A stretch of DNA of 64,000 bases, from assembly GCA_039621445.1 (NCBI GenBank), contig CP154954.1, positions 28,638,417 to 28,702,416 of the forward strand, given 5' to 3'. Under the pieces are notes generated by a model. That model worked only from the letters and a program-made list of their open reading frames with translations, did not search any database and was not told the DNA's origin. Below, piece by piece: positions 3,929 to 64,000 of the stretch. Numbering within the stretch: the stretch's first letter is position 1; every line of letters starts with the position of its first letter. A program made the translations under genes and the position numbers. Source of the DNA: Euglena gracilis. Taxonomy: Eukaryota.

Positions 3929-4146
3929 CAAAACCAGCCCCACTTGGTGCCTGGGGAGGGGGAATTCTCAGGAGCAGTACATTTCTGTTGTGGCACACAC
4001 ACACACACACTCACACACACACAAACACCCACCCACCCACCCACACCCACACACATGCAGCCTTCCCCATCTGAGAGGGGCAGTCCGGTGAGAGGGGGCG
4101 ACGGAATGAGCGGACGCCATCAGGGGCAGATGGATAAGGATAGTGC

Positions 4147-4213
4147 TCAATTGTACCGCTGGGCCTTTGTCCGGCCGATGGAAAAGACATCAAAGCCGAT
4201 TTCCCGCAGGGCC
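4147..4213 (-). CDS. UGDH: UGDH exon 13, terminal ([21 protein letters not shown])
   Basis: Typical LRxIGFxVxxIG C-terminus; TGA at 4149-4147. Confidence 0.93.
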
Positions 4214-7200
4214 GGCTCCAGGCCGTGGCTTCTCCACGTAGCCGTGCGGGAAACTTCTGGAGAGGGCTGCCCCCCCCCCCAGGGTTTGATATAAAGGCGG
4301 GGGGGGGGGGTCGGACCTCCCCTCCGGTGCAGGAGGGGGGAGGTGGGGTGCCCCCCCACCTAAACAGTGGCGCAGTCCGGCTGACTGATTTTCGGCGAGC
4401 GCGAAGCGGCGGGCCAAAAAAAATTAACCCCAAATGGCAAACATGTCATTTTGGACACTTTTTGGGCGAAATTTGTCAAAATTTTCCAGCGCAAAGTGAA
4501 AAGTGTCAGAAGGAAAATTAAACTATGTTTTTTGATTTTTTGGGGGAGGGTTGGTCTGGAACCCCTCCCTTGGCAGGGGGAGGGTGTCCGACCCATACCA
4601 TTACTTGGCGACCCGGGGGGTCACTTTCCACTCTGAAAAAAACCGGTCAGTCACTTTTTCCGAAAAAGCAGTCAGTCACTTTACCCCCCGGGCGGGGGGG
4701 GGCACTCTTGAATATGCAATGAACATTTGCCAAGAAATCTCAAAAAATCCAAAAAAATTCCGGCGCCTTTGGTGCCAGGCCTGCCCCCCCCCCCGGGGGG
4801 TCTTGGCCAGAAAACCAGTCAGTTCCCTCTGAAAAAACCAATCAGTCACCCCCCGGGGGGGGGGGGGTAGTTGGACAGGTGTTAAGCAATGGCATGGTCC
4901 GACCCCCTGTTCCAGGAGGGGAGGCACCCCACCCCACCTAAACCCCGCATACCCTCTGTATATTGAACCTTGCCCCCCCAGCAATTGTCACACAACAATT
5001 TAGCCAGCAGATGTGGGGGGGGGGCTGACAAATTGGGGGACGGCAAAAAGGCAGGCAGAGGGGGTGACATTTGCCCACTGGGGTAGACGAATAATCAGTA
5101 ACCTTCCGATCTCTTGAAAACACTTTTGATCCCTTCAAGCACATTCTTGAGCATTCAAATCCCGAGTTCATGCGTACATCCAGAGATTGATCAACCAAAA
5201 CTTCCAAAGACTCCATCTTTTGGTGCATTTTTTGCCATTGGCAAATTGCCAAAAGTTGAGGGGGTGACAGTTGCCGCCGGGGAGGTATTACCATGCGGTC
5301 TGGACACAGAAGGGAGGTTCATCGTATCCCCCACCCGGAGCAATGGCCTGACCTTCAGGTCCAGGTACCCACGCCCATCAAACAGGAAGGCGGGCTTCGT
5401 CATCTCCTTGAAGATCTGCTGGTAATCCAGCGTCTTGAACTCGTCCCATTCGGTCTTCGGTAGGGAAGTTCAACCGTCCGGGTCAGCAAGCTTTACTGGG
5501 AGAGGGTTCAGCGCCGTCCTGGTGGGGACTCTGCGAAAGCTGAACAGAGAGAGAGAGAGTCAAATTTCCAGGGACAATCTTCAATCGGGGTCACAATCAA
5601 CCGTGGGAGCTGTTTGTCTGGGCCGACAACATGGCCCCCAAGCCAAACAAATCTATGGCCCCCAAGCCCAACAAATCTGACACAAAAAAAAACAACTGAT
5701 CAGTGGTGGTGAGGTGGCGATTTGCACTTCCCTCGCCAACACCACAATGGCGTGGGCATTCTTACACGCCTCCACGGCCGACTTCTCAATCCGGTAATTA
5801 GACTTTATTTGGTTCAGCAGGTGCTGGTTGCCCTCTGCCACCTCGTTCAGGTCTTGAAGCATTTGCTCCTCAGTGACCTTAGGGTCATGGCAGGGATAGG
5901 TGCCAAGGCTCGTGTAGCCCAGAGGTAAGAACTCCAGTTGGGAACGTCAAGGGTAACCGCCTTACCTGGCTTGTGGTCGTATGGGAAACCTTGGGGCAGG
6001 TTTTATTTTCACCAACCTGGGGGGGTGCATTGTGCTATGGTTGCCTGCCCATAACCAGGCATCATCATTTTTTAAGGTGTCTTTAAAAACGTTAAAATGC
6101 CTTAAAATGTGCCTTAAATTTTTGGGCCAAAATGCCTTGAAAGTCTTAGAATGCCTTGCACCAGGGTGGGCAGGCTTCTTTTTAAAAAAAACAAAAAAAA
6201 AAAAAAAAAAAAATTAATGAAAAAAAAAAAAAAAAAAAAAAAAAATAAAAAAAAAAACAAAAAAAATAAAAAAATTCCCCCTTCCCCCCCAGACGCGTCT
6301 GAGGCCATTTCCCAAAGAAAAAAACTTTCGGCGCTTTGCGCTGAAACCCATACCTTGTAGCAGCCCCGCGCTTCTATCGGGGGGGGGGGGGGAGGCTTCC
6401 GGCCATGGTCAACCATGGCCAAGCCATTGCATCACCCCCCCTTTAAAAGATTTTCATCCAGAGGTTGGCCCGACCCTTTGGTTGGCCCATGCGACATCTA
6501 TGCTTAGGTTTCGGAACCACCTTTGGCCAAAGTTTGTGTTGCATCAAAATTGTGATTGTATGAACAAAAAGTCCCAAAATCAAATGTATTTGTGGTTAAT
6601 TGAAGGAATAGGGTCAGGGACTCTATTCCAATTAGGGCGTCAATTCAGCCAAAGAGGGGGAGGCCAGCAGGGGCCCGTGCAAATGTGGAATCAGGGGATT
6701 TTTAAGACCGAGGGCGGGGTCCCCACCCCCTGGGGGGGGGGCCCGGGCCCGGGGGGGGGGGGGTCCCGGGGGGACCCACAAAAAAATGGTCGAAAAATCG
6801 CGAGAAATGCTAAAAATAGCATCTTTTCAAAAAATTTCGGCACCTTCAACGCCGAAAAGGAAATCCCACCCCCCTCCAGGGGCCCCCCCCCCCCCCCCCG
6901 GGGCCGGACCCATCCCCCCCTGCACTCCCCACACTTCTCCCCACCCCTACACCAATGCCCAAAAAGAGGAGGAATTTCATTTTATTTTTTTTCATCCTCA
7001 CACCTCCAACAAGAAAAAGGAAACAACAGGAAAAAACAATTTTGGCAGTCTCTGCCCCAGTCCCCCAAAAAAGATTCTTTTTTTGCCCCAACCCCCAATA
7101 AATTTTTTCCTCTCGGAACGTAGTTTTTTTTTTGCTTTTGGAGGTGCAAAATGGGCCAAAATAGACAAAAAAAAAAAAAAAAAAAAAAAAACAAAGAAAA

Positions 7201-10200
7201 AAAAAAAAAGGAAAAAATAGACAAAAGTGAGTCAGAGAATCGCCGGAGCCAGATTTTTTTTGTCCTCGTGTTTTTGCTTCCAATGAGCAAAAGAGTTCCC
7301 ACGCCGGTTGGAAAAGGCTACCGGTTGACCCCCTTGGGGTCCCCCGGCTGGAACTGGGTTCGGCTGGGGTCGAATCAAAAAATCGAAGTCCCTGGAAAAC
7401 AAATACAACTTGTTGATGAGATGGTCTGGGAAAAGGCTGCTGGCCAACTGGAGGCCCCCCCCGGGTCCACTGACAGGTCCAATGACAAAGAATATCCCCC
7501 AGAGGAAACGACCTGTCAGCGAAGGTGCCGAATATTTGCAGAATTTGCCACCAGAATATCTGCAATCTCCTGCTGGGGGATGGTCATACGACCAAAGTGC
7601 CAAAACCCCTGCTTCTGTAAAGCTTTTTTTTTAGGTAACCCAAACCCCTGGCCAGGGGGTGGGTGTCGCACGCACCCCCTGACCTAACCCCGACCAGGGG
7701 TGGTCAGTAAACAGGGGGGTTGGTGGGCAGGGGGGGGGGTTTAAAAAGAATCTTCGGAATAACAAAAAAAACAGGTGGTGACACAACTTGGCACCGTGTC
7801 CCTGGGTGTAGCAGTGGACCAGTGCTCCGTCATCCAGGAGCGAGCTGCACACTGGAATGGCGGAGCTCTCCCGCGTATCGCCCGTGTCCTTCTTGAAGGC
7901 AAAGCCCAACACTGCAATCTTCTTGTTGGTCACTGTGTCAAACATGGTCCGCACGATCATCTCCACAAAGCGCCGGCGTTGATAGTCATTCATCGCTGCT
8001 TCCACTCCTGCGCTGAAACAGGAAGTGGAACTCGGTGCACTTTCGATCCGTTTCAAAAAGGCTCAAAACTCCTGGACAACTTTGTGCTGTGGGGAAAAAG
8101 GTTGAAAAATGGGAAGCAGACTATTTCTTACCGACCAGAGGGAGGGGGGGGTGCTATAGGGTGGGGTGCGGGGGTGCTATAGCGTGCCTGCCCCTAGCAG
8201 GCACACCCCCCCCCGGGGGGATAGGGGTCCGGGGGGGGGGGACCCAGAAAATTTTCATTGAAAATGGCCTTTTCCGGGCCCCCGGCGCCAAAGGCGCCGG
8301 GGTCGGAGGGGGGTGCCTGCTAGGGGCAGGCACCCCCCAAAATCCTACTCCCCCCCCGGGGGGGTCAGCTCAGGTGCTATGGGGTGCCTGCCCCTAGCAC
8401 CCCTCCCCGTGGGGTAGGCACCCGACTAAGCACAAGCCTGGTGCCTGCCCCAGCACCCCCCCCCCCCGTGACCCCCCCCGTGGGGTCGGCACCTCACTTA
8501 AAAAGAAAAGCCTGATGGGAAGAAGAAAATTCAATTTTCTAGAATTGTTGACGGCCATGTTGTTGGAGGATCTGGCTGGCGAAGGAATTCCTGGCAATTG
8601 CCAGTGCAGTGAAAAAATGTCTCAGTGAAGGGGTGGTCACCACGCTGTACCAATAATCCCCCACCTCGTGCAGCCCCAAAGAATTGGATAGGTAGACCAG
8701 GTTCAGGATGTCCTTCTGAAAGCAGGAGCCACCAAATCCAACGGACGCCTTGAGAAACTTCCGGCCAGGCAGGTCCTGTGTTAAGATCCGGGGTTTCTGG
8801 CTTCTGGGTGCCTGTCCATGACAACGTTTCGGACAGCAGTCACTGGGATTTTGGGGTGGGCCCGTCACCTTTTTAAGAAGTAAACCCCGGAGCTTTTTAA
8901 ATTTTAATTTGTTGGGTAATCATGTCTCCTGTGGCAAATGTGTTGCAACTCTGGTGTGAACGCCCTTTTTGTGCAACACAAACCAACAAAACGACGGCGC
9001 GGTTTGCGTTGTAATGTAGTGTGGTGTGGTGTGGTGTGGTGTTTTGGGTTGAGTTGCCTTGTGTTGTGTTGTGTTGTATCGACAGCATCGGCCCGGTTGG
9101 GGCCAATGCGAGAGTCCCGGCCGATGGCGAACGCGACCTCGTCGATGTCCGCCCCGGTGGCCTCGCAGACGGCGGAGATGGAGTTGATGGAGGAGATGCG
9201 CTGCGCCAGAAACGCGTTGGCGGTGAGCTTGCTGAGCTCGCTGGACCACTGGTTGGTGGTCAGGATCCGCTCCCGCAGAGGCAGCTGACCTTGGGGGGAG
9301 GGGGACTGGCGCGCCCACTCAGGACCAGAATTGCAAAAAGAAAAATCCCGGCCATCATCAGATTGTCAGGGGCAGGGCCAGGGACGCATGGGAGGCCTTG
9401 AGGGGCGGGGGGGTCGGACTCCCTCCCTCCAACCTCGTCACTGAAATGGGACCATTTTTTTTTCAGTTTGTGGACGGGCAAAGGTACGGATACCAGTCCA
9501 AAATTGTTGGAAAATCCCTGATTCCATTTGAAAACAGACCAAACCCCCCCCCAAAAAATACGTTTGACCGTTTTTTTTATGTGGAAGACACCAAAACATC
9601 CAAAAATGGGTGGGCAATATGCTCAAAAGTGAGGAAGAAGGTGAAAATTATTCACTTTCCAGTGCAGTGCCGGAAGGAAAACAGCTATTTTATGGAACCT
9701 GCTGCACACCCCTCCAACAACGGGGGGGGGGGTCCGGACCCCCAACCACCTGCCTCAAAACCAAAGGGCTTCCCAACTATCCCTGGGCAGGGCTGCAGCA
9801 GGGTGTGCCACCACGAACGGAGCTCCCCTCCCGGGTTTGATATAATGGCAGGCACTGGGGGGAACCCCCCCCCTCCAGGCATCGCCCCCACTGTTTTTGT
9901 GGAGGGTCCGAATTACCGCCTTTCCAGCAAGAAGCACGAAGCACCGGAGAGAAATTTTTCCCGCGTAATTACACTCAGGGGGGGGGGAAATGCGCTCGCC
10001 CGGCCTCGGAAAAAATGTGCAAAAAAAATGCGCAAAAAATGCGCATTTTTGGAAAAAATGCGCAAAAATGTGCAAAATCCGAGGAAAAATGCGCAAAAAT
10101 CACGAAACTGCAAAAATTACCCAAAAACATGCAAAAATGGCACCAAATTTGAAGAAATTATGTAGAATAATGAGGGAAAAATGTACGTTTCAAAAAAGTC

Positions 10201-13200
10201 AAAAATTTCAAATTTTTGCAAAAAATTGCAAAAATGGTCAAAAAATGCGAAAATTTTGGAAAATCACAAAAAAGGGGACCTAGGATCAAAGAAACACACA
10301 AAACTGGAAACCATCAATGGATGGAAATGGAAGTTGAAATGAAACTATGTGCAACCAAAATCAGCTGTGCGGCACCCATCGTGCATAGACAGAGCAGAGG
10401 AGCTCACAGGCCTTCTGCCCGCTGGGTGTTTGAGACCCACCGATCAGCGCCAGGCATTATTATTATATATTATCATCATTAAAAGTACCTTGAAAAAGCC
10501 TTAAAATACCTTAAAATGCACCTTAAATTTTGGCCAGAATGCCTTAAAATGCGTTAAAATGACTTAAGAAATGAGACCAGCAGAATCTTCTCCGACCGAG
10601 CAAAAATGAAACGCAAAATCTCGGCAAAACAGGCCGAATTCGGGAAGAAAAATGATCTCTGGCATCGCTGAAACATTGTCTATCCAACCAAAACTCAAAA
10701 ACTGCGTTTTTCGACTTTCCTTGATTTTGGACCACGTGCGAAATCAAAACGTTGGTTAGATGCCCGGATCGCCCATGGACCACCCTGGAAAATTGTGCCT
10801 TAAAATTCCTTAGAATGCCTAAAAGTGTTGGAAAAAATTTGACCCTAAAATAAACATATATAATACATGATATATATATATATATATATTATATTGCATA
10901 TGTAAAAGATATATGCAAAATAATGCCTGATCAACACACGGTCGGGTTTCAGAAGATCCTCAATGGCTGTCCCCTCGGCAAGAAACTCGCCAGCACGTCA
11001 GCACTCAGACTGATGACACCGATGTGGTGTGTTGACTCTGACAAGGCATCTGTCGGTGGGAAAAAAATGGACCAGGATTGTCATGAACCAACTTTTGAGA
11101 AAAGGATGACCGGTGAAAAATGGTGGCGAAAAAAATGGGAGCACTGGTGTGCTCTGGGTTTGACAGTACTTCAAATGTGGCAGAGGTGTCAGCACCAGGG
11201 ATTGACAAGAACATAATTTGGGAGTCAAACACCCCATCAGTGGCACACAACAGTGACACAATGGAGCAAACCCATGGCCAATGGATGGGGTAACTCAACC
11301 CTCTGGGTATAGGGCAATCAAAAAAAATTATAACAAACAAACTTTCTGGGTGTTTTGGTAAAACACCCAGAAAATTTCCAGATGCTTCTTTGCCATAATT
11401 TCATATTCCTAATTCTGGAGTGATGTGCTGCTAAATTTGCCAACCTGCTTTCAAAATCCAGGTTTGGTTCTCAATATTTGTGATTTTTGTTGGACTTGAC
11501 ACGAAAGAGGGGTAATCAAGGAAAGTGGAGAGCATTTTTAATGCCCAAAACATGTGAACAGAGTATAGCCAATGATTACAGCCATGGGTCGTTGTGGGTC
11601 GTCAGGGTTGAATCAGAGAGGGTCATTGCCAGAGTGTGTCCTATGTGGGTCTATGGGTGTGTGTCCTATGTGGGTCCAGAGTGTGTCCTATGTGGGTCCA
11701 ATGTGTGACCTATGTGGGTCGCAGATAGGGGTTTTTTGAGGCAATCATCAAAAGAAAAGTCATGGAGGTTCCTTATGGTGCCCTCCTCTGCTTAGAAGCG
11801 GTCCATCCACTCGCATTTCATTTTCATGTGACTCAGCTTCCACACTCCCAGAGCTTCTTGCATGCAATAGGTGCAAAGTGGGGGGATCGTTACAAAAGGC
11901 AATTGTTCGAAACGGTGCGCGGTCGACCTCCTTACGTCAAACCCTGATCAGCACTGCATGCCTTCAAGACTCGCTCAATGGCAACGCTGCAGCGAACAGG
12001 CACTGTGGACTTCTCCACAACCACCTTGTTGCCAGACTTCACAGTCCTTGCAAGGAGGATTTAATCTTCAGAGGGGCCATGGATTGCCGACCAATTGTGC
12101 TCCCCCGGCTTCTTTTAAAGACCCCCCACCCAGCCCAGCAGGGGACCGCCTTGCCCAATTTTTTTCTGGTGCTTCTCTCCGGAACCCATGCCCAAGCTTC
12201 CGCAGGGACACCCCCCCCCCACATAAGGGACCGGACCATACCATTGTTTACCGACCCCCTTACTTACTTTCCACTTTCAAAAAACCAATCAGTCACTTTT
12301 CAAAAACCAGTCACCCACTTCCCACCTCCTTCCTGGGGGAGGGGGTTGGTCACTTTGGCTACTCGGCCAAAATTTGCCAAAAATCAAAACATTTTTAGTC
12401 AAAAAAAAAAATCCGGCGCCTTTGGCGCCAGGTGGCCACGTCGGCCAATCCTGACAACCCCCCCAGGGCAGAACGGGAAGGCCTGGTGGGGGGGGGGGTC
12501 GACCCCCCCACCCGGGAGGTGGGGGGGGGGTCGACCCCCCCCACCCACTACAGCGTTTTCACCGATTTCAGGAAAAAGGGGATATTGGCCGGGAAGATTT
12601 TTGAATTTTTTTTTTGAAAAATGAACCCAAAACACATGATTTTTTGATGGAAACCCACATTTTTTTCACAAAAAAATATCAAAAAATTTCAGGGTTAAAA
12701 TTGGTAGTTTTTAGGAGGGGGGTGAAAAAAACGAACGTCAAAAAAAGTGGACAAAATTTTGGCACAATCAAATTTTACTGCCATTTTTTCTCGTTGAAAA
12801 TTTTTGGACTTTCAATGGCATTTTTTCTGCTTCAAAACCTCTCAAAATCAACATTTTGAGAAAATGTTGAACTTTTGGAAGGTGTGAGAAAATGCGGTTT
12901 TTGGGTGTTTTTGGGGGGGACCCCCTATATGGGTCCCAAAACGGGTCAAAAAAACACCCGGCGCCGGAAAATTTTTTTCGGGTCCAAAAATTGGTGCTCC
13001 CGGAAATACGGGAAGAGGTGGTGGGGGGGGGTGGTCGACCCCCCCACCCACGGGGGGGGGGGGGGGGAGCTCGGCCGGACCCACCGGGGGTCCACAAGTT
13101 AAAAAAAACCCCTGGTGTCCTTCCAAGCTTACCTCCCCTCTTGAAAGGAGTTACCAATTTTGTCAGGCATATAGCGTACCACCAGGGGAAAGAATCCCCT

Positions 13201-16200
13201 GCCCCAATTGGTCAAACGTGCGGCTTGGGGCAATGCTGTGCAAAATATGTCTAAAATTCTAAAATACACTCTGCAAAGCACTGGAGGAAAAAAATATAAA
13301 AAATAATAACCTCTTGGGCATCTACCCCTCCCCGGGAAACTGTCAGCAAATACGGAGGTGAGTAACAGTTTCCCGGGGGGGGGGGTCAGAGGTAAAAAAG
13401 GAGAATTTTTAAATCCCCGGGGGGGGGGGGTTGGACAAGCGAAGCTGCGTGCCACACTTCGGTTTTTTTAAAAAAAGAAAAAAGAATTTTTTCAAAAACA
13501 CGACATTTTACACTTTTATTTTTCAAGGTTCAAAAAACATGTTCATTGAAAAGCTGGAAGGTCAACAAAATCGTTGGGGGCCAGTAAATATTTGGACAAT
13601 GTAGACCCCCAGGGTTTCATGCAAAGAGGGTGTGCAAATTTGGTCACTTGCTTGTTTAAAAAATGGATCCACTTCAGACCAGGATCAATTCCAGGTCGCC
13701 ACACTGTGTGGCTGAACCATCCTTGATCGTTGCAATACGACGGGCAGCACCTTCAATGTACTTCAGATCTGCCGCTCGCCCTTTGCCAATCCCATGCAAC
13801 TTGGTGGGTGTGAGCAGGGATCAGGCTTCTTTTTACCAACCCCGGGGGGGGGTGCCTTGTGCTATGGTGCCTGCTGTCCACAGCAGCACCCCCACCCCAG
13901 GGGGGGGGGGGGTTGGTTTCGGCACGTGGTGCCTGCTGACACAGGCAAATTTCCCTTGAAAACGGCCATTTTTAGCACTACCCACCCCAAAACCGGCTCC
14001 CGGGGGGGGGGGGGGGGTTGAAGGTACCCTACCCTCCTGCTGGCCCACAACCCCACAGGGGGTGGTGCAACTTTCCGAAACAAAAAGAAGCCTGGCAGGA
14101 ATCCATCAACTTTCTGCTGCACAAATTTCACCAATGCCCAAGATTGTATGCATGAATATTGATATTGATTTTGTTTTTTTCCGGTTTTTGTGCTTTTTCT
14201 TTTCTCTGGTTCATATGCCATTTTTTTCCATTTTTTGGGGGGATTTGGTAAGCCCACAGTTGTTGGAGGAACATGCAGGGGTGACCACCTCCATGAGCGG
14301 TGTGAAATGAAATTTCAATATTTGTACCAAAGCTACAGTTTAAAATGAAAAAAGTACACCTTAAATTTGAAAACAGTGCATAATAGTGTGTTCGGTGCAT
14401 AATATGCATAATCAGTCCAGAGGTTTCCATGAGGTTGCACCCATGTGTCTCCTCCTCACCCTCTCCTCAAAATGTCGGGGGGGGGGGGGCGGTGCACCTG
14501 GATGGGTGGATGGGGCAAGGCTGGTTATTGGATATCGCTCAATATCGCAAATATCGAAAATATCGCCAAGGGGTGCAATATCTCGCAAAAATATCGCAAT
14601 CCCTCTTTTTTGCCCTTCTACCGAAAATCCCTATTTTGTGCGTTTCCTCTGCGTCTGCGTTTCCTCCCCTCATATTGCACCAAATCACCAAATTCATAGG
14701 GGAAAACAAATAAAGAAATGGCAAGCAGATGTGACACAATTTTCAAATGACTTGGCTGAATTTCCTTAAAAAAAATACACGCGAAAAAAATGTGCTCCAG
14801 AAAAGAGTCGTTGACAGGGGGGGGGGGTGTCAACAACACGCTGTGTCTTGGACAAGGGGAGGAAGGGGGTATGTGATTTCTTGGGTCCCAGGAAATGTAA
14901 TCCTGACTTTTGGTTACCTGAGGCTTGTAGGCAGATGGAGCCTGGTCACCACGGAGGCTCTGTGGAGGCTCCGCGGAGCCTCCTCCAGGTGACCAATTTT
15001 GTGCAAAGCCATCTCGCACAAACAAATCACACCAGATCCCACTGTCCCACACCATAACACACCATATTTTGCAGCTTTCCACCATTTTCTTTACAATTTT
15101 TTTGCAATTTTTTTTTATATTTTGGGGCCTTTATAGAAGCTAACCCTTGACCCTACCGAGAGAGAAAATTGCAATACCACCACCACCCATCGGAGTCTTT
15201 TCACCAAAATGTGGTTGCCCACAGGTTGTCTGTATTCGGCCAGACTGGAAGAAACACTGTTCAGTTGTTCTTTGTTCCATCGTTCTCTTGGGGCAGTTCG
15301 GGGTTTGCCACACACACACACACACCATCATGCACATGCACCTGACAGGGTTTACACAGCGGCATTTACCTGTTGGCAACACCGTCCCAGTGGCATGTAC
15401 ACCACCCCAAACCCCCCTGCTGACTCTCCGTGTGACTTGTGGGGGGGATTCCCAAAAAGCCCACATCACCCTCCACCATCGGGGGGGGGGGGGGGTGGCT
15501 TTAGTCACACTTCTTTCACAATCATTCCAGCATTCTTCTCCCATTAATGCCACTCCCTGAATGTGTTCACAGACATAAACACGATGTCCGCTTCTTGGAG
15601 TTCCTCATCGAAGCTGGTGGTGAAGAAAAGGTTCTTGCCACGCTGCTGCTTTACAATCTCCTCCAGTCCCGGTTCATAGATTGGAAGTTGGTCTGAGTTC
15701 CAGGCATCAATCCGCGCCTGATTGATATCATGGATGGTCACCTTGACATCTGTCACAGGGCTTCCGATGAGAGGAACTGTTACCGCCTGTGCTCTCCCCA
15801 GGGGGAAGATAAAAAGAATAAAATAAATCTGCTGTCCCAGCACATTCAATGAAACCCCAGAGGAAGAATGGGCAAAAAAGAGCCAAATTTTGGCAAAAGC
15901 GGCTCGAATTCGGTAGAAAATGTGATTTCCGGCATCCTTGGACTATCGCCCATCCACCCAAAAGGTCGAAAAATGCATGTTTCGACCTTTTTGTTTTTGA
16001 GGAGGAGCCCACACCGCGGTTATCACCGCGGTTGCACCGCGGTCACACCGCGGTGTAACCGCAAGGTAATGGAGGTCAAAATTCTCTTTCAATTCACACG
16101 ATGATCTTGGTTTGGATTCCACCTGTCAACAATTTGGGATATTTGAGTTCCAAAAACAGGCTAAAAGATGAATTGAACCAATTTACGCGTATCGCGAAGC

Positions 16201-19200
16201 GCCGAAGGAAAACTTTTGGTGTTTCTGGGAACCTGGAAAATGATGTCTTTGGGCCGTTGGTAAAAAAAAAATCCAAAAATAAGATCCCCCAAAAATAAGA
16301 ACCCCTGCAGTTTTTAAGTAACGGACCCAAAAATCCCGGGTCTCATTTGGGTCTCATTTCCCCCCCTCCAACCCCAGCGGCATGAAGCACTGGACTGATA
16401 CTGATACCTTTGCTCTTGTTCTCACTGCGATTACACCGCGGTTACCTGGGCTCCTCCCGACCCGGTTCACGCCCCCCAGTTCTGCCCTTGGCAGACAGAC
16501 TCTTAGGCCTGAGGGCTTCAGGGCCGTCCTGAACAGGAAAAAAAAGAAAAATCTCGTCCCGTATGGACCACCCTGGCTCTCTCCATGCACCCTTGGGGGT
16601 CAGGGCCAAAGATGCTGTTCAAAACAAACACTTCAGACTGAGAAACATGTTTAACCCCCCAAAACCAACAAAAAAGCATGCATGAAACTTTTATTTGGCA
16701 AAACCATTGCCTTGTTGTACCCGCCCCCCCCCCCTTGTCTAACGACCGGGTTCCTACGACCCCCGACCGGGGGGGGGGGCGTACCCCCCCAACCTGCAAC
16801 CCCCGACCGGGGGGTGGTCTTACCACTAGGGGCAAAACAAAACCAAAAGCCAAAAAAGGTGCAATTTCATAACGGTAATATTTCTCCCCATGAGGTAAGG
16901 GACCAATAACCATAGCAGCAACAGAGGTGCTATCACTACGCTCAAACAAAACAGGACTCCCCGGAGGGAACACGAGGAACACTCAATGGACAGGAAACAC
17001 GGGAAAAAAGCTGGTCGACAAGCACATGAGAGGTAAAACATTTTGGTGGTCACCTGCAACCCCGACCGGGGGGTGGTCGTACCCCCCCCCCCCCAACCTG
17101 CAACCCCCGACCGGGGGGTGGTCGGTATGTAGGGGTGGTCGGTGGACAAGGGGACAAGGGGGGGGGGCGGGTACTATATCGAGAACTGTGTCCCAGACGC
17201 CGGTTCGGGCGGGAAACCTGTGCCTGGGACGCCGGTTCGGGCGGTAGCCCGAACGGGCCTCCCAGGCACAGCTTACCCGCCCGAACCGGCGTCTGGGACA
17301 CAGTTCTTGAAACCATGGCTAGGGGCTCCGTTTTCATGCCCGAACCGGCGGCTAGGGAATCACGGCCAATTTCGCCCAAAATACCCATGTTTGGGGCAGT
17401 TTTGGGCGATTTTGGCCCAAATGGGCCGCCGGTCAAAAATGGCAGATTCCACACTTATGAAGCCATGTTACCCATTAATCGAAAGCTCTTCTCAAGGGCT
17501 TTCGACAGATAATCACAGGATTCGGCCACAATGCACGCAGCGCTTATTTTCAGCGATCGTGTATTCCAAAATTTGACATCCTAATTTGTCAAATCCCACA
17601 GTTCAGGTTGCAAATTGCATATCAAACGAAAGGTCTCGCCAACACCTTTCGCTTGGTACCCACAGAACTCAGCCAGATTGCAAAGCGACCTCAAAATCAG
17701 CGATCGCATTTTTCCGCATTTTTCGGACCCCATTTGCATATCTGAAATTGCACTTTTCAGCTGCCATGTTACCCATCGATCGAAAGCTCTTCTCAAGGGC
17801 TTTCAGCAGATGGCCTTAGATTTCAGCCATGCTGTGTGGTATTCTATTTCAGAAATTCTCCAAAATTGGCCAAAAGGAAACTTTTCCTCAAAAACCCCCA
17901 ATTTTTGGCCCAAGACCACCCAAAAGCTGCGCAAATGTGATTACCACATGTCTACAAACCCTTTTGGACACTTTTTGGCACTTTTATTTTGGGTCCCCCA
18001 GACGCCGGTTTCCCGCCCGAACCGGCGTCTGGGACGCCGGTTCGGCGCAGAAATTTCCCGCCCGAACCGGCGCCCCAGACGCCGGTTCGGGCATGAAAAC
18101 GGAGCCCCCAGAGACGGTTTCAAAAACAGGTTGTTTTATTCTTGACATCCTTAATCAGAATTATACCGTTGCTCAGCAACACCCCCCGGGGGGGGGATCT
18201 GGAAAACCAATCACCCAACTCCCCAACCCCTCCAGGGTCGGTCTCAGGCTTCTTTTTAAGACCCCCGGGGGGGTCCCCCCCCACCCACCCAGGGTGGCGC
18301 GGGACCCCCCCGGGGGGGGGGGGGGGCGGGGACCCCCCCCCCAAAATCGGGCCCGTTAAAGGCAATTTCCAAAAATTTTCGGCGCTTTGCGCCGAAAAGG
18401 TATACCCAGCGCCTCCGGCGCGGGACCCCCCCCCCCAGGGGGGGTCCGGCCCGGACCCACCCACCCACCCCTCCCCCCGGGGGGGGGGGGGTCTGCTGAC
18501 TTAAAAAGAAGCCTGGTCGGTCTCTGGCCACTGGGACCAAAATGACTCAAAAATCAACACTTCCACTCTGGAAATAATGGTTCAGTCCAGGGGTTTCCTT
18601 AAAGACCCTGGGGGGGTTACCGCTAGGGAAAAAAAAGGTGCTGGCTGGAAAAGGGGTCTACCGGCAGCTGAACCGGGCTGGCACCTCGAAAACAGGCAAG
18701 AAAGCCCGAATCCAGCCCGAATCTCCGTTGACAAGTGCCTCTTTTTGAAGCCTGAAAATTTTTTGAGGGCTGCAGCCGGCTGTTCAGAAACGGGATAAAT
18801 TGGCCCCTACACGGTACCAGGTACCCCAAAGAGCCGCCCAACTGGGGTTAATGCACATGGGGGGACCCTCGCTTGGCGCCTCACTCAGGTCCCCCCATGT
18901 TTTTAACCCTAGTTGGGCGGCTCTTTGGGATTGCTGGGAACCTTGTAGAGACCAATCTAATAACGTTGGAGGCTAGGCGCGCCGCTCGGGGGGGTCCGGG
19001 CCCCCCCCCCTCCCCCCCCCCGCGCGGCCCCTGCGCGGCCGCCCGCGCGGCCGCTCGCCCCCCCCTGGACCCCCCCCCTCCCCCCCTGTGCCTAGCATAG
19101 CCAAGAAAAAAATTTTTGGTGAAAAAATCGTGATTTTTGAGGCCCAAAAATGACCAAAAATGACCATTTTTGGACACAAAATGGCTAATTTGAGGGCCGC

Positions 19201-20494
19201 ACGCTCTGCGCGCTGCCAAAAAAGCACTGTTTTGCTCAAAAATGGCCCAAAAAGGGCAAAAAATGACCACTTTTTGGACCCGAAAATCACAAACCGATTT
19301 TAGGATGCGTTCCGCCCGCGCGGGCCGCGCCTCGGACCCCCCTCCGGCCCACCGATTTTAGGATGCGTTCCGCCCGGCGCGGCGCGCTCGCGGACCCCCT
19401 CAGGCCCCCCCCCCCCCCCGGGCCTCACCCGCGCGGCGACACGCGCGGCCGCTCAGCCCCCCCCTCAGACACCCCCCCCCCGCTGTGCCTAGCCTCCGTT
19501 GAGCAGGAAATGTTCTGCTGTTTGCATAAGAATCATAACCCTAACCCAACTCATATAACCCTTCAAATAACGTCAGAAATTCTTTTTGGCCACGGGTTAA
19601 CGCCACCAGGAATTGTTTTGCAATGCCCCCTAGCTTATGGGTACCCTCACCCCCCCCCCCTATTTGGCTAATGGCCGGGCTCCTTCGGACCCCCAATTAG
19701 CCAATTTGGGAGGGGGGGACAATTGGGGGGGGGGGGGGGTAACCCCGGCCAATGGGCAATAAGCCCGACCCCCCCCCAATTGGCTAATGGACCGTCCAAC
19801 GGGACCCTCAATTAGGGGGGGGGGTGAGGGTATATGCAAAAATGGCCTTTTTATCCTTTTTATGTTCCGGGGTTTGGCCAAGGGTTTGGATGCTTTTGAA
19901 AAGGAAAACCATTGAGGTCGTTTCTACCGACCATATGTTCGGCCCGACCTCCAAATGGTCAGGCCGACCATATGGTCGGCAACTGCAACAGGTCGGGCCG
20001 ACCAGTCCTTTGAAAAGGGGGGGGGGTAATGCGGTACAGTGGCCATTTCTGTCGACCTCCAGAGGTCGATAACAGCATGGTTGGGCCTTGGGCCGTGCCG
20101 ACCTAGGTCGGCCCAACCTCCAGAGCAAGCATGGCCAACATCCGCCCGGGGCCCGAATCCAGTGGGTTGGAATTTTTCCGCCAAAATTTGGAACTGAAAG
20201 CTTAAAACCGAAATCCCTCAAATTGCCATGCCATTCTCACTCTTTTTTCAAAAAAATATTCAATCCAGCTTCGGCAGGCCATCCGGGGTGGCTGAACTTG
20301 CAGTGGTCCCATCTCGAGACCAAAACCAGGGGTTTCTTCAGCTGGAGGGGACCCAACCCCCAAGTCACGGTCTCCTCCTGTCTTTGCTGGAATGTGAAAC
20401 CCTGTCAGGGACATTTGAAAGCGATGACTGCCATCGTTGGACCACCAACGTACCCAGCGCCAATGCACAAAATCTTCACTTTGAAGTCAGCCAT
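4147..20494 (-). CDS. UGDH: UDP-glucose 6-dehydrogenase, 13 exons, 1428 nt spliced CDS, 475 aa
   Basis: Hand-joined exons give one uninterrupted frame [20 protein letters not shown]...[11 protein letters not shown]. Family motifs occur in order: GAGYVGG (Rossmann), [62 protein letters not shown] (catalytic Cys), [23 protein letters not shown]. Confidence 0.97.
4280..4972. mobile_element. MITE family B copy in UGDH intron 12, carrying a nested element
   Basis: CAGGGTTTGATATA ... TATATTGAACCTTG; poly-C flanks. Confidence 0.75.
4594..4896. mobile_element. MITE family C (TIR CATACCATT.CTT / AAGCAATGGCATG), hAT-like
   Basis: Perfect 8-bp TSD GTCCGACC at 4586-4593 and 4897-4904. Confidence 0.88.
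5354..5455 (-). CDS. UGDH: UGDH exon 12 ([34 protein letters not shown])
   Basis: TEWDEF and PAFxFDGR motifs. Confidence 0.95.
5738..5886 (-). CDS. UGDH: UGDH exon 11 (DPKVTEEQM...AHAIVVL)
   Basis: Completes YDP and AHAIVVLTEW across the junctions. Confidence 0.93.
7808..7997 (-). CDS. UGDH: UGDH exon 10 ([10 protein letters not shown]...[15 protein letters not shown]...VHCY)
   Basis: UDP-binding domain motif. Confidence 0.96.
8639..8760 (-). CDS. UGDH: UGDH exon 9 ([23 protein letters not shown]...YWYSVV)
   Basis: Catalytic GGSCFQKD. Confidence 0.96.
9099..9276 (-). CDS. UGDH: UGDH exon 8 ([32 protein letters not shown]...DSRIGP)
   Basis: Central helical domain motifs. Confidence 0.96.
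10371..10445 (-). CDS. UGDH: UGDH exon 7 ([25 protein letters not shown])
   Basis: Phases match both neighbours; YxxWVP motif. Confidence 0.92.
10933..10988 (-). CDS. UGDH: UGDH exon 6 ([19 protein letters not shown])
   Basis: EFLAEG and PDRV motifs. Confidence 0.93.
11155..11190 (-). CDS. UGDH: UGDH exon 5, 36-nt micro-exon ([12 protein letters not shown])
   Basis: Supplies the LSNP that precedes EFLAEG; acceptor ccCTGgtgct|. Confidence 0.9.
11633..11720 (+). repeat. Short tandem repeat of GTGTGTCCTATGTGGGTC-type units (4 copies)
   Basis: Seen directly in UGDH intron 4. Confidence 0.85.
11950..12046 (-). CDS. UGDH: UGDH exon 4 ([32 protein letters not shown])
   Basis: EKSTVP motif. Confidence 0.93.
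13729..13809 (-). CDS. UGDH: UGDH exon 3 ([27 protein letters not shown])
   Basis: Conserved peptide, not shown in the ORF track; 3' boundary uncertain by 1-2 nt. Confidence 0.93.
15563..15750 (-). CDS. UGDH: UGDH exon 2 ([29 protein letters not shown]...IVFMSVNT)
   Basis: Conserved UGDH peptide; flanks ccCTGtgaca| and |attCAGgga. Confidence 0.95.
20408..20494 (-). CDS. UGDH: UGDH exon 1 ([29 protein letters not shown])
   Basis: ATG at 20494; NAD-binding motif; followed by intron start tgaCAGgg. Confidence 0.95.
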
Positions 20495-20520
20495 TTTGTG
20501 CCCTGAAAAACAAAATTATT
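20495..20520 (-). promoter_or_regulatory. Probable spliced-leader trans-splice acceptor of UGDH
   Basis: Minus strand reads aataattttgtttttcAG|ggcacaaaATG: a pyrimidine tract plus AG (20504-20503) 8 nt before the start codon. Euglenozoan mRNAs are SL trans-spliced. A 5'-UTR cis-intron acceptor cannot be excluded. Confidence 0.65.
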
Positions 20521-20902
20521 GTGAGAGTCCTGCCATTCTACGCCAAACAAAGAAATAACTGTTTAAAATACCACTTGGAGGAGCCCAGATACCTGTAACT
20601 GCGGTGAAACACGATGAGAACCAGAATGAGGGAATTGTCCCAGGGGGTGAGGGTAATATGAGGCGGTTTCAATTTTGGGGCGAAGCTGTGAAGAATTTTT
20701 TTTTGAAATACCCTAATGCGTCCCGACTTTGGGCGACCTGGAGCCTTAAAAAGGAACCTGGGGGTACTTTCAATTACAATGTTGTAGGGAAGGTCCATCA
20801 ATTTGGGAGGGGGTGTTGGCCAACCATACATGGGGGCCAACCATGCAAAAATGACGGTACTTGTCTGTTATCGCACGACATCCCCCCCCCCTTTCGGTTA
20901 TC

Positions 20903-24725: not shown

Positions 24726-25165
24726 AAAAAACACGTCACAGCGGTGGTGGCAGACCCAGATATCACGTGCCACGGTGGACGGCGTGCTGAACCGAACCTT
24801 GCCGAGAGACCAGGCCCGCCTGATGGAACAGGCCCATGGTGTCGGTCATGGATGGATGGCAGTGGCACCCCACGAGGCCCTCTTTCACACGACGATTGAT
24901 GCTGAAGACTACCGCATCGGGCTGAAATGGTGGTTGGGGCTGCCACTGGCAGACTCAACCGGCACGTGCGCAGGATGCCAGAGCGTCACTGACGTCCACG
25001 GTGACCACGAGATGTGCTGCATCCGGAATAATTTTGCCAACAGACACAACGCCGTCCAGGACGCTTCATTCAACCTCTTGTCCACAAACGGCCAAAGTGT
25101 CCAGCGTGAGGTTCCGGTACCCAATCAACCAGACACCTCTCTACGGTCCGCCGACCTGCTGCTGG
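24726..25165 (+). mobile_element. Relic of an RLE-type (CRE/SLACS-like) non-LTR retrotransposon, C-terminal zinc-knuckle/endonuclease region
   Basis: DQARL...GWMAVAP...YRIGLKWWLGLPL...CAGC...DVHGDHEMCC...RHNAVQD...REVPVP...LRSADLLL matches the CxxC-H-C, RHN and RPAD layout of restriction-like-endonuclease retroelements. No RT domain seen. Confidence 0.8.
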
Positions 25166-25583
25166 CCACAGAGCTGTTTCACAGAGTACATGGGGGTATG
25201 TGCAGCCCATGGGGTGCAGCACGCCACGTTGGACGAATGTTTTTTTGGGGTGGGCACGCTGGTGTATTGATCCTCGGGAGTTGTACTCAACTCCTCAGTA
25301 GCAGTTGGCATGCGTTGCTGTACGTACAGAGAGGGTTGGCACCAATTTTCGTGTTCGTTCCATGCCAATTTCGTCCTTTCGTACGTACCTGAATTCCCTT
25401 GTGTTTGAATACAAGGTGTCAGATCGCAACGGCCCACCAATTGTGGCCTCCACCTAGCCTTCTTTGCCCCTCTGGCAGCGAAGGCTTTGGACGAGAAAGC
25501 TGCTGGATGGAAGGGACCCATTCTCCTTGTTGGTGATCATCCCTCTCACGGTCTCAGTAATCACACATTTTTTTCACATTTCA

Positions 25584-28804: not shown

Positions 28805-31800
28805 ATGACGACATGGGTAAGTGCTGCAAATCAGAGAAGGAGAGTTTGTTGGCAAGCTCATTCCCATTGCTGGCGGCCGTTCTTACATCGTCAACACAGA
28901 TTCAGGTCTTCATTCAATCCTTCTCAACACATTTCTTTCCAGTAAACCCCCCCTCCCTAATAGAAGCACGGGTGCGTTTATAGCGGACTGTCGCCTCTGG
29001 CGGCGGGGGGTGTGCTTCTATTTGGACCCTGCCTGCCCGATTTTTGTCGATTTCCTTTAAAAATCTCATCAAAATGGGGGGTGCGCTTGTAGTGGACCGC
29101 CCTCTTCGACGGCGGGGGGGGTGCGCTTTTATTTGGACCCTGCGCTTTTAGCGGCCCCGCGCTTCTATTAGGGGGGGCGGGTTTACCCCTTTTTCACAGT
29201 GGGACCTCTCCATTGGACTCCCCTTTTCTCAATTAGTGGGGTTCAATTAAGGTCATTTTTGGACTTTCCGCAGAAAACTCCCCATTCTGGTGATTCTCTG
29301 AATAAAAATTGTGAGTATCACCCATATGCACATTATCACGTTATCCTCACCCCCCCCCATTTGGTTAATGCCCGGGCTCCATTTGCCAATTAGGGGGAGG
29401 GGCGAAAGTGTCCAAAAGGTTTGTCGACATGTGGTAATCATATCTGAGCAGCTTTTTGAGTGCCTTCGGCCAGAAATTGGTTGTTTTTAGGCAATCATTT
29501 CCCTTTGGCCAATTTTGGGGAATTTCTGAAATAGAACATCAGTAGCATAGCTGATATCTAAGGCCAGCTGCTGAAAGCCCTTGAACAGAGCTTTCAATTA
29601 AGGGGCAAAATGGCAGATGAGCAGTGGACTTTGGAATTTGTGAAGGCTGATTGGAACACGCTTTTCAGAGCGCTTTGCAGTGTGGAGTTCTGAGGGTTCG
29701 AAGCGAAAGGTATTGGTGAGAGCTTTCGATTGATATGCTAAATAGTATTTGAGCTGGGATTTAACAAATTAATACCATGCCCCCCCCCCCCGAGCTGTCC
29801 CCCCCCCCCCCGAGCTCCCATAGGGGGGACGGGAATAGCTCGCTGTCATAGCACTTTTTACAAACTTCCCAAAAAAGTGCTCAAGAATCGACGTTTTTGG
29901 GACGTTTTCAAAAATCGCTTTTTGACAAATGTGCACAAAATTGACCATTTTTTGCGAACATCCAAAAAAGTTGCCAAAAATGACCCCTTTTTGGGTTGCC
30001 CGAGGGTCGTGTATGGGAATAGCTCGGGGGGGGACCCAGGTCCCCCCCCCCCCCCGAGCTGTTCCCCCCGTACTGTTCCCATTGGGCCGTAAAGGGTCTC
30101 GGGGACGGGAATAGCTCGGGGGGTGGGCATGGTACGTCAATTTCTGGAATACAAGATTGCTGAAAATGAGAGCTCCATGCATTATAGTTAAATTCTGTGG
30201 CCATCTGTCAAAAGCCCTTCAGAAGAGCTTTTGATTGATGGGCAATATGGCAACAGAAGTGTGAAATCTACCAATTTTGCTCGGCGGCCAATTTGGGCCA
30301 AAGTCGCCCAAAAGTGTCCAAAACTTGGGTATTTGGGTCGAAATTGACCGTGATTCCTCAGACGCCGGTTCGGGCTGTGCCTGGGACACAGTTCTCGTTA
30401 TGGGTAATCTTGGACAGCCTGCTCGTGATCATCAGCACGTTATTTTGACACCCAAAAATCCTTGTAAATCGTGAACAAGCTGTTTACAAGTATCAGCGGT
30501 TATTTGGGGGGGGTCCAAGTATTGCCCTGCTAATCGTGAACCAGAAACCAACTCTGTAAAAATACCACAGCAGTATCCGGGATTGCGTTCAGGAAACCTG
30601 CTGGTCCTGGAAAAGGTGATATGGGCTTAAAGCCATGTTTTTGGGTAAGGAGGGCGTACATGGTTTAGGATGGGGGGTGTCCCCCCCCCCCCCCCCCCCC
30701 CCCCCTGGCCCGCAGGGGGCGGTCCGGACCACCCCCCCCACCTGCCAGGGGGGTCCGGACCGACCCTCGGGGGGGGGGGGGGTTCCCGGGACCCCCCCCC
30801 CAAGGGTCAATTTTTTCCTCCGGCGCTTTGCGCCGAAAATTTTTTGCATTTTTGGCACATTTTTGCCAAAAAAGTGCCCAAAATGGCACTTTTGGTCGTT
30901 TTGGGGGGGTCAAAAATTTTCGGCCCGGCGCTTTGCGCCGGGCCGAAATTTGGTAACCCAGACCGCACACCTGTTTAGGTGGGGGGGTCCCCCCCCCTCT
31001 CCTGGCCCGCAGGGCGGGGGGGTCCGGACTACCCCCCCACCTGTCCTTATATCGAACTCTGCCCCACCCCCCATTTTGAACCCCTGGCCACGCCAGTCCC
31101 CTATTTTACCCCCATCCCCCATTTCCAACCCCCTGGAGCTTCCCCAGTTTTTTTTGGCATTTTTCTTCGAAAAAGTCACCAAAACCGACAAAAATGCCCA
31201 AAGTTTGAAATTTCTAAATCGAAAAAAGCTACCATACAGTGCGGACAAAACTTACTGGAAACAAAAATTATGGAAAACCACACAATTTTCCCGTAATTTT
31301 TGTCCTGTAATTGTTGCCCAATAAACATTTACTTGGGGGATTCTAAGATCTAAAATCATTTCATTATCTGCATTTCGTTTTTAAAAGAAAAATCTTTGAA
31401 ACTTAACTTTGTTTCAACTCCTTTCCTTTTGGTGCAGCCCAAAGAGTTAGCATCTCTGTCCCATTTTGCTGCCAGCATGGACCATTTTCCCTGAACTTTT
31501 GAATTTTCATCACAAAGAATAAGATGGCTCTGGGTATAAGACAACAAAAGGAGCATTTTACCACCCCCCTCAAAAGTATTGCTTTCAAATTGTTTGTCCA
31601 TTGGCACCACAGCGGTCGGAAGTTCATGTCCATTGCACCTATGATAGTTTTTGGGGCTCGACAAACTGCGCATTAAAACACAATTGATTGCTGTTGACCT
31701 GCCGCTTGTGCCCACCGACCTTGCTCCAAAACCTGCACCCATTCCAACCGCTTTGCAGGGCCTGGCCCTGTGGAGGCAAAGTGTGGTCGACGGCTTCCTC

Positions 31801-63142: not shown

Positions 63143-64000
63143 GTGTTGTGTGTGTGTGCGTGTGTGTGTGCACACGTGTGCGTTTGCATCTGCTCACATG
63201 TGCCTGCCTGCATGTGCGTGCGTGCGTGGTGTGTGCATGCGCGCGCGTGTGTGTGGATTCAGATGCACATATATAGCGTTCATGTGTGCCTGTCGGTGTC
63301 TTTCTTAAGCCGGAGGGGACCTGGCAGGCTGGTAGAACCATCCCTTGATGCTGTTGGCGAACAGAATTGGGAAGCAGAGCCCCCCCCCCCTTAGTCAAGT
63401 TTCCGGGCTCAGTCAAGTTTCAAGCATTCCCTGGCTTGGATCTGTTGGTACCGGAACAACTCCCCGCCAGGTGTGAAAATGGTGCCAGAGGATGAAGAAG
63501 AACGTTGCAAAAAAGAATGAAAATAGCACAAGGAGCAACTTACTGAAGGTGGAAGCAGGATATTTGTACAAGGCAGCAGCTGTGTATGCAGCCGCACACT
63601 CAGCAAAACACACAACTCGAGACACACATGCACACACACACAAACACACGCAGACATGCAAACACACACACAAATGCACAAAAGAACACAATTTATCATC
63701 CACACCACACTGGCACATGCACACACACACACACACACTAACACACCCACGCACATAACCACCCACCTACCCACCCACACATCTGGGCGCACCCACGCAC
63801 CTACGCACCTACAAGATGTGTATGTACGCATGCACAAGAATGTAAGCTGGTACAGACCAATATTACACCTTCCCATGATGCTTGCTCTTCCCTTTGAGGG
63901 CCCAGAGTGTTTTTCTACAGGCAGCGATGATGTGAGCAGGCTCTGTGGCTGCGGGCCAGCAAGTTTCATCTCGTGTTTCAATTCTTCATTGCGTCTCGCC

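Follow-up and report, generated by a model that had tools for sequence, protein, structure and literature searches.

In the nonconventional introns of euglenid nuclear genes, positions +4, +5 and +6 pair with positions -8, -7 and -6, mostly as CAG with CTG (Milanowski et al., 2016). Such introns are reported to make up 16,151 of 28,337 introns (57%) in Euglena gracilis, where terminal pairing is seen genome-wide (Gao et al., 2024). In E. agilis, their share reaches 71.8% (about 466,000 introns), with a comparable share in E. gracilis, and slidable introns account for 84.4% of all introns; by knock-in mutagenesis, both a sequence code and the helix were found to be needed for splicing (Nomura et al., 2025). 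Nonconventional introns are described as being removed without the spliceosome and later than conventional ones and, according to papers citing Guminska et al. (2021), as being released in the form of full-length circles, and an origin from miniature inverted-repeat transposable elements (MITEs) has been proposed for them. Here, we analyse a stretch of 64,000 nt from E. gracilis (positions 28,638,417 to 28,702,416 of contig CP154954.1, assembly GCA_039621445.1; hereafter the window, with positions counted from its first letter), which carries a gene for UDP-glucose 6-dehydrogenase (UGDH) interrupted by 12 introns. A preliminary description of this DNA had presented all of them as non-GT-AG, base-paired introns of the nonconventional kind and had called the excision machinery unknown, a statement that still stands according to the 2024 and 2025 papers.

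Our results lead us to conclude, with considerable confidence, that the locus is an expressed E. gracilis UGDH gene in which at least 11 of the 12 introns are nonconventional, with junctions bridged by a terminal helix and with an excision route that is probably distinct from that of the U2 spliceosome. A search of the literature outside the supplementary intron tables of the genome-wide papers gave no report on the introns of the UDP-glucose dehydrogenase gene of E. gracilis.

The UGDH gene and a matching transcript-derived protein

The locus is very probably a nuclear, expressed UDP-glucose 6-dehydrogenase gene of E. gracilis, which lies on the minus strand and comprises 13 coding exons. All 24 boundary strings quoted in the preliminary description were recovered on the minus strand within positions 4000-20600, 22 of them as single copies; the short strings gagCAC and gacCACccct occur 7 and 3 times in this interval, with one copy each fitting the gene model. 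Joining the exons between positions 20494 and 4147 at the 12 quoted boundaries yields one frame of 475 codons without internal stops, which begins with an ATG at 20494 and whose stop codon ends at 4147, and the quoted range of intron lengths (166-4657 nt) was reproduced from the same boundaries. The peptides of exon 2 (15563-15750), exon 8 (9099-9276) and exon 10 (7808-7997) match the Pfam families UDPG_MGDP_dh_N (PF03721; E 7.2e-18), UDPG_MGDP_dh (PF00984, central domain; E 5.6e-16) and UDPG_MGDP_dh_C (PF03720; E 7.1e-10), respectively, so that the gene shows the order N-terminal NAD-binding, central and C-terminal UDP-binding domain. The peptide of exon 11 (49 aa), searched alone against Pfam, gave no match, and three of the four exon peptides tested were thus positive. 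Over about 462 residues, the protein is 64% identical to the UGDH of Branchiostoma and 59% identical to that of Otolemur. The NAD-binding motif GAGYVGG in the coding part of exon 1 (20408-20494) aligns with that of homologues, and the conserved motifs of the alignment include a Cys-containing motif of ten letters in exon 9 (8639-8760), whose Cys we take to be the catalytic residue of the enzyme. At the other end of the frame, the C-terminal sequence GRTKAQRYN, encoded by exon 13 (coding part including the stop codon, 4147-4213), aligns with euglenid homologues. Eight of the 12 homologues compared align without gaps, among them a 475-aa protein that does so across residues 1-475.

The removal of the introns is supported by a transcript-derived protein. 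A search with exon 10 retrieved EG_transcript_14324 from EukProt, a sequence whose name follows the scheme used for the E. gracilis transcriptome. Its 420 residues correspond to residues 21-440 of the model and are identical at 419 of 420 positions (99.8%) without a gap; it therefore spans the junctions of introns 1-11. Judged by this gap-free protein, 11 of the 12 introns are removed, and the removal of intron 12 is judged by the spacing in homologues only. Exon 3 (13729-13809), exon 4 (11950-12046), the 36-nt exon 5 (11155-11190), exon 6 (10933-10988) and exon 7 (10371-10445) are likewise placed by alignment with both the homologues and this transcript, and exon 12 (5354-5455) by alignment with the homologues. 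Other high-ranking full-length matches include a protein of Eutreptiella gymnastica. In an index of sequencing runs, 18 runs from 8 studies contain all 18 sampled exon 10 words; most of these runs are only guessed to be RNA, and since shared words reflect presence and not splicing, they were not used as evidence of expression. A metagenome scan with EG_transcript_14324 returned no euglenid cDNA or genomic locus among the matches listed, which comprise at least 80 loci with relatives that are 59-65% identical.

Intron ends, terminal pairing and the splicing code

To describe the intron ends irrespective of the register in which they are written, we enumerated for each intron all placements that give an identical mRNA and all placements within 30 nt on either side of both ends that give an identical protein. 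None of these placements has GT-AG ends in any of the 12 introns. Intron 11 becomes a GC-AG intron with identical mRNA when slid by +1, and in the other 11 introns neither GT-AG nor GC-AG ends are compatible with the transcript-supported protein. If changes to the protein are allowed, every intron has canonical alternatives that stay in frame; those of introns 1-11 conflict with the gap-free match to EG_transcript_14324. Nine of the 12 introns are slidable, and the direct repeats at the junctions add up to 28 nt, compared with 8.5 nt expected, a total reached in a fraction of 0.00015 of 20,000 random sets. In the quoted register, the first base of the downstream exon is a purine in all 12 cases and that of the intron in 11 of the 12. 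As to intron phase in that register, five introns are in phase 0, seven in phase 2 and none in phase 1, values that are not fixed for the nine slidable introns.

Intron 2 has AT-AC ends as written and is slidable across five positions. When compared with the U12 5' splice-site and branch-site consensus, its 5' end, ATTCAGGGAG, is unlike a U12 5' site and its last 30 nt contain no box resembling a branch site, and a U12-type reading was rejected.

The second feature of the class, terminal pairing, was examined in the register proposed in the preliminary description (+4 to +6 with -8 to -6). Nine introns show 3-13 contiguous pairs starting from the pair of +4 with -6, and the pairing of intron 11 begins with a G.A mismatch that is followed by 8 pairs. 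The proposed register thus holds in 10 of the 12 introns, if intron 11 with its mismatched first pair is included, and fails in introns 3 and 10, which pair one base off (+4 to +6 with -5 to -7) and accordingly have a 3' spacer of 4 nt. The helix starts at a constant distance from the junctions, within one base, in all 12 introns. The best terminal helix has a mean length of 7.7 bp, as opposed to 4.2 bp for 20,000 random position pairs with the same spacings, and the mean of 12 random draws equalled or exceeded the observed value in a fraction of 0.00075 of 20,000 trials. Folding the intron ends together, as the preliminary description had recommended, also revealed pairing well above the random control at the level of the set: RNAduplex gave a mean of -20.8 kcal/mol for the first against the last 30 nt, compared with -11.0 kcal/mol (standard deviation 5.8) for 3,000 random pairs. 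Moreover, contiguous helices between true partners average 5.1 bp, compared with 2.25 bp when each 5' end is matched with 3' ends from other introns, indicating that the pairing beyond CAG/CTG is intron-specific.

Nomura et al. (2025) used knock-in mutagenesis to define the code N3-CDG/CH'G-N5-6|R, which is also obeyed by synthetic introns. When all slides are allowed, 7 of the 12 UGDH introns (58%) fit this code. Six of them carry CAG-CTG, namely intron 1 (15751-20407, 4657 nt; tga-CAG...CTG-tgaca), which is unslidable, intron 2 (13810-15562, 1753 nt; att-CAG...CTG-ctcac), which slides from -3 to +1, intron 4 (11191-11949, 759 nt; gat-CAG...CTG-gtgct), with a 7-nt direct repeat (GTGCTGA) at its junctions, intron 6 (10446-10932, 487 nt; gat-CAG...CTG-gcgct), with a terminal helix of 11-12 bp, intron 7 (9277-10370, 1094 nt; gca-CAG...CTG-cctct), with a terminal helix of 13 bp, and intron 12 (4214-5353, 1140 nt; ggt-CAG...CTG-gagcc). 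The seventh, intron 8 (8761-9098, 338 nt; aac-CGG...CTG-gccgg), has the derivative CGG-CTG, a combination shown to splice (Nomura et al., 2025). The remaining five lie outside the code in every slid placement. Intron 3 (12047-13728, 1682 nt; gat-CAA...TTG-caag) deviates through its CAA/TTG motif and its 4-nt 3' spacer, intron 5 (10989-11154, 166 nt; gag-CAC...GTG-ctggc) and the unslidable intron 9 (7998-8638, 641 nt; gac-CAC...GTG-gaagc) through CAC/GTG, intron 10 (5887-7807, 1921 nt; acc-CAG...CTG-ccat), which is unslidable and has the most stable end duplex of the set (-31.8 kcal/mol), through its 4-nt 3' spacer, and intron 11 (5456-5737, 282 nt; ggc-GAG...CTA-ccgaa) through GAG/CTA.

This proportion is close to that reported for E. 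agilis, where the code is present in 61.2% of the nonconventional introns and 38.8% are left unexplained (Nomura et al., 2025). Because it covers just 61.2% of these introns, the code does not define the class as a whole. When single bases of CAG or CTG were changed in the published assay, splicing was lost, and a 3' spacer of 4 nt left only about 20% of the wild-type transcript; in the text consulted, compensatory changes were confined to the second position of the motif (Nomura et al., 2025). In the UGDH gene, the third pair (+6/-8) is complementary in all 12 introns, and its identity is changed in three of them, to A-T in intron 3 and to C-G in introns 5 and 9. These changes suggest that a position for which G and C are prescribed by the published code covaries in nature. 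We therefore raise, tentatively, the possibility that what the nonconventional machinery recognizes may be a helix set at a given spacing from the junctions and not the letters CAG/CTG. If so, the 2025 code would form part of a broader rule defined by structure, and introns 3 and 10 would also function with a 4-nt 3' spacer. With its length of 166 nt and its CAC/GTG motif, intron 5 is a convenient natural candidate for addressing the question of sequence versus structure at the third pair.

Based on these features, we envisage that, in the pre-mRNA, a short helix would form between intron positions from about +4 onward and from about -6 backward. It would bring the two junctions together, leaving 3 nt between the helix and the 5' junction and 4-5 nt on the 3' side, and a machinery that is probably distinct from the U2 spliceosome would cut at those fixed distances and join the exons. 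The intron interiors would be unconstrained filler, expanded by dispersed repeats. The notions that the machinery reads the helix and its spacers, that removal is late and independent of the spliceosome and that circles are released derive from the literature and not from the present analysis.

Alternative readings of the locus

Several observations weigh against our conclusion. The junctions of introns 1-11 are fixed at the protein level only, up to slide ambiguity, and that of intron 12 lies beyond the end of EG_transcript_14324 and has no E. gracilis transcript support. Five introns fall outside the published code, intron 11 allows a reading as a conventional GC-AG intron, and intron 12 admits a GT-AG placement. 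The sole mismatch to EG_transcript_14324 concerns residue 412 in exon 11 (5738-5886), away from the junctions, which is K (AAG) here and R in the transcript-derived protein; the transcript may therefore stem from another allele, strain or near-identical copy. Finally, taken one by one, the introns lie only between the 0.7th and 28th percentiles of the random duplex control, so that the pairing signal resides in the set and not in each intron. This last point, together with a window rich in G runs, C runs and repeats, could be taken to mean that composition produced the terminal complementarity by chance and that the boundaries were picked to show it. However, the boundaries are set independently by the protein, the set-level statistics lie far outside both the random and the cross-intron controls, and the distance of the helix from the junctions varies by no more than one base among the 12 introns, which leaves a negligible probability for this explanation. 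The difference at residue 412 is also compatible with a silent copy, a pseudogene or unexpressed paralogue whose apparent introns are never spliced, with the transcript coming from elsewhere. Yet all 13 exons are intact, there is no stop or frameshift across the 475 codons, the identity to the transcript-derived protein is nearly complete, and in a decaying copy, preservation of the frame together with 12 paired, code-conforming junctions would be unexpected. We thus consider a silent copy very improbable.

The two remaining alternatives concern individual introns. Moving the 5' boundary of intron 12 by +1 and its 3' boundary by -2 would turn it into a GT-AG intron and give a 476-aa protein with one extra proline (…YLDLKPALRE…). 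This placement preserves the reading frame, the one transcript-derived protein recovered from E. gracilis ends before the junction, and the K is replaced by P in the closest other species (…YLDLPALRD…); a search with the exon 12 peptide retrieved no E. gracilis protein reaching intron 12, the best matches being 79-88% identical and from other organisms. However, of 234 homologues, 20 lack the motif, 195 have 11 residues between FDGR and GF, 19 have 13, and not one shows the 12 that the GT-AG alternative would produce. In addition, its 5' site, GTCAGG, is unlike the GTGTG consensus reported for E. gracilis (Gao et al., 2024), pyrimidines make up only 8 of the final 20 intron bases, and the placement used here fits the nonconventional code exactly and forms a 7-bp helix; the remaining canonical alternatives replace the conserved YLD. 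A GT-AG intron at this site is hence improbable, although less so than a silent copy. The situation differs for intron 11, which is more aptly described as hybrid or ambiguous. After a slide of one base, it begins with GCGAG, with G at +5, and ends with CTTCCCTACCGAAG, leaving the mRNA unchanged, and a C-rich tract (CTTCCCTACC) precedes its AG. In E. gracilis, GC-AG introns have been reported to show a prominent G at +5, and conventional introns a C-rich polypyrimidine tract (Gao et al., 2024). Furthermore, intron 11 lacks the CDG/CH'G motif and is conventional under the GT/C-AG rule of Nomura et al. (2025). On the other hand, its ends form an 8-bp helix (AGGGAAGT/ACTTCCCT) in the register of nonconventional introns, its end duplex (-24.4 kcal/mol) lies at the 2.6th percentile of the random control, and hybrid introns, which constitute 0.8% of all introns, have been suggested to be processed by the noncanonical machinery (Nomura et al., 2025). 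Removal of intron 11 by the U2 spliceosome, as a GC-AG intron of conventional or hybrid type in a gene that mixes both kinds, is thus a serious possibility, if not the reading we favour. The earlier claim that all 12 introns are non-GT-AG and nonconventional accordingly holds in its first part, but the term nonconventional is safe for 11 introns only. The same applies to their assignment to the euglenid class, which is borne out for at least 11 of the 12 by the non-canonical ends, the helix at a fixed distance and the purine downstream of every junction, with intron 11 left ambiguous.

Intron interiors, flanking sequence and relation to known systems

Beyond their tips, the 12 introns share no sequence except for one 79-nt match between introns 10 and 6. 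Their interiors contain homopolymer and short tandem tracts as well as dispersed repeats of 73-85% identity, which recur elsewhere in the window, mostly in inverted orientation, and account for part of the intron length. Inverted pairs with 82-85% identity connect intron 3, which contains a 577-nt dispersed repeat, with a distant region of the window (12483-13044 and 48889-49440), intron 9 with positions 57033-57285 (from 8184-8440), intron 1 with positions 29405-30375 (from 17338-17974, with a short middle segment at 78%) and intron 12 with positions 41313-41488 (from 4615-4781). The idea that these internal repeats are MITEs was rejected, as none of the seven pairs examined ends in a CAG/CTG inverted repeat. 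The repeat in intron 9 starts with a perfect small hairpin (GTGCCTGC...GCAGGCAC, 8184-8204), and its start motif appears again at 8441-8451, which suggests tandemly abutting copies. Two runs of A on the plus strand, of 91 nt (6184-6274) and 51 nt (7167-7217), lie inside intron 10.

Outside the coding region, a T-rich run ending in AG is found on the minus strand at about 20503-20520, 8 bases upstream of the start codon (TTTTGTTTTTCAG|GGCACAAA ATG), and looks like an acceptor for spliced-leader trans-splicing. Just beyond the stop codon, in the presumed 3' untranslated region, there is a (CACA)n microsatellite on the plus strand (4000-4055). A search of the whole window against Rfam at gathering thresholds and a tRNA scan gave no hits, and hence no known RNA gene hosted by an intron. 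Ten long open reading frames had no Pfam family at E<=0.01; three are antisense inside the gene, and seven, encoding 221-337 aa, lie outside it (24727-25389 on the plus strand, 59208-60218 on the minus strand, 62415-63305 on the plus strand and four more). All ten are probably chance frames in repeat-rich DNA, and this crude approach based on long reading frames and Pfam found no second recognizable gene in the window.

The intron organization of the UGDH gene was correctly recognized but is ordinary and of a kind already known, and its importance was much overstated at the outset. It had been put forward as a clean test set; however, nonconventional introns are the majority class, and the gene adds no test set beyond the genome-wide catalogues. 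Given this majority, a gene with only nonconventional introns is to be expected now and then: under independence, the chance that all 12 introns are nonconventional is about 0.57^12 to 0.72^12, or 0.1-2%, per 12-intron gene, which implies that there are many such genes genome-wide. The splicing system itself is genuinely odd among eukaryotes, yet it has already been catalogued across genomes and dissected by mutagenesis. Beyond annotation, the locus has only modest value, as a compact, well-anchored set of introns in one highly conserved protein, with seven on the code and five off it.

Among other intron types, the introners or MITE-like introns of Micromonas, dinoflagellates and other lineages resemble the UGDH introns in combining short terminal inverted repeats with junction repeats that are similar to target-site duplications. 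In other lineages, the spliceosome is known to excise introners at GT-AG or near-canonical sites. Unlike introners, the UGDH introns have no common sequence beyond their tips, the 79-nt match excepted, and their dispersed repeats are internal and not located at the ends. Intron 2 shares the AT...AC ends, as written, with U12-type AT-AC introns, but its 5' end, ATTCAGGG, is unlike that of U12 introns, and it fits the nonconventional code exactly.

With the intermediate or hybrid introns of euglenids (Milanowski et al., 2016), assigned to the class 'Both' by Nomura et al. (2025), intron 11 shares GC-AG ends, once slid by 1 nt, and a stable terminal helix. It is the only one of the 12 introns to qualify, and it lacks the CDG/CH'G motif by which the class 'Both' is defined. 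The closest relatives of the UGDH introns are the nuclear nonconventional introns of euglenids, as described for tubA, tubB, gapC, hsp90 and rbcS and genome-wide for E. gracilis and E. agilis. The two have in common non-canonical, partly slidable borders, CAG/CTG or derivatives thereof paired between +4 to +6 and -8 to -6, spacers of 3 nt at the 5' end and 5 nt at the 3' end, a purine downstream of the intron, junction repeats resembling target-site duplications, lengths from tens to thousands of nucleotides and a euglenid host. There is no difference of kind between them, with 5 of the 12 UGDH introns lying outside the 2025 code.

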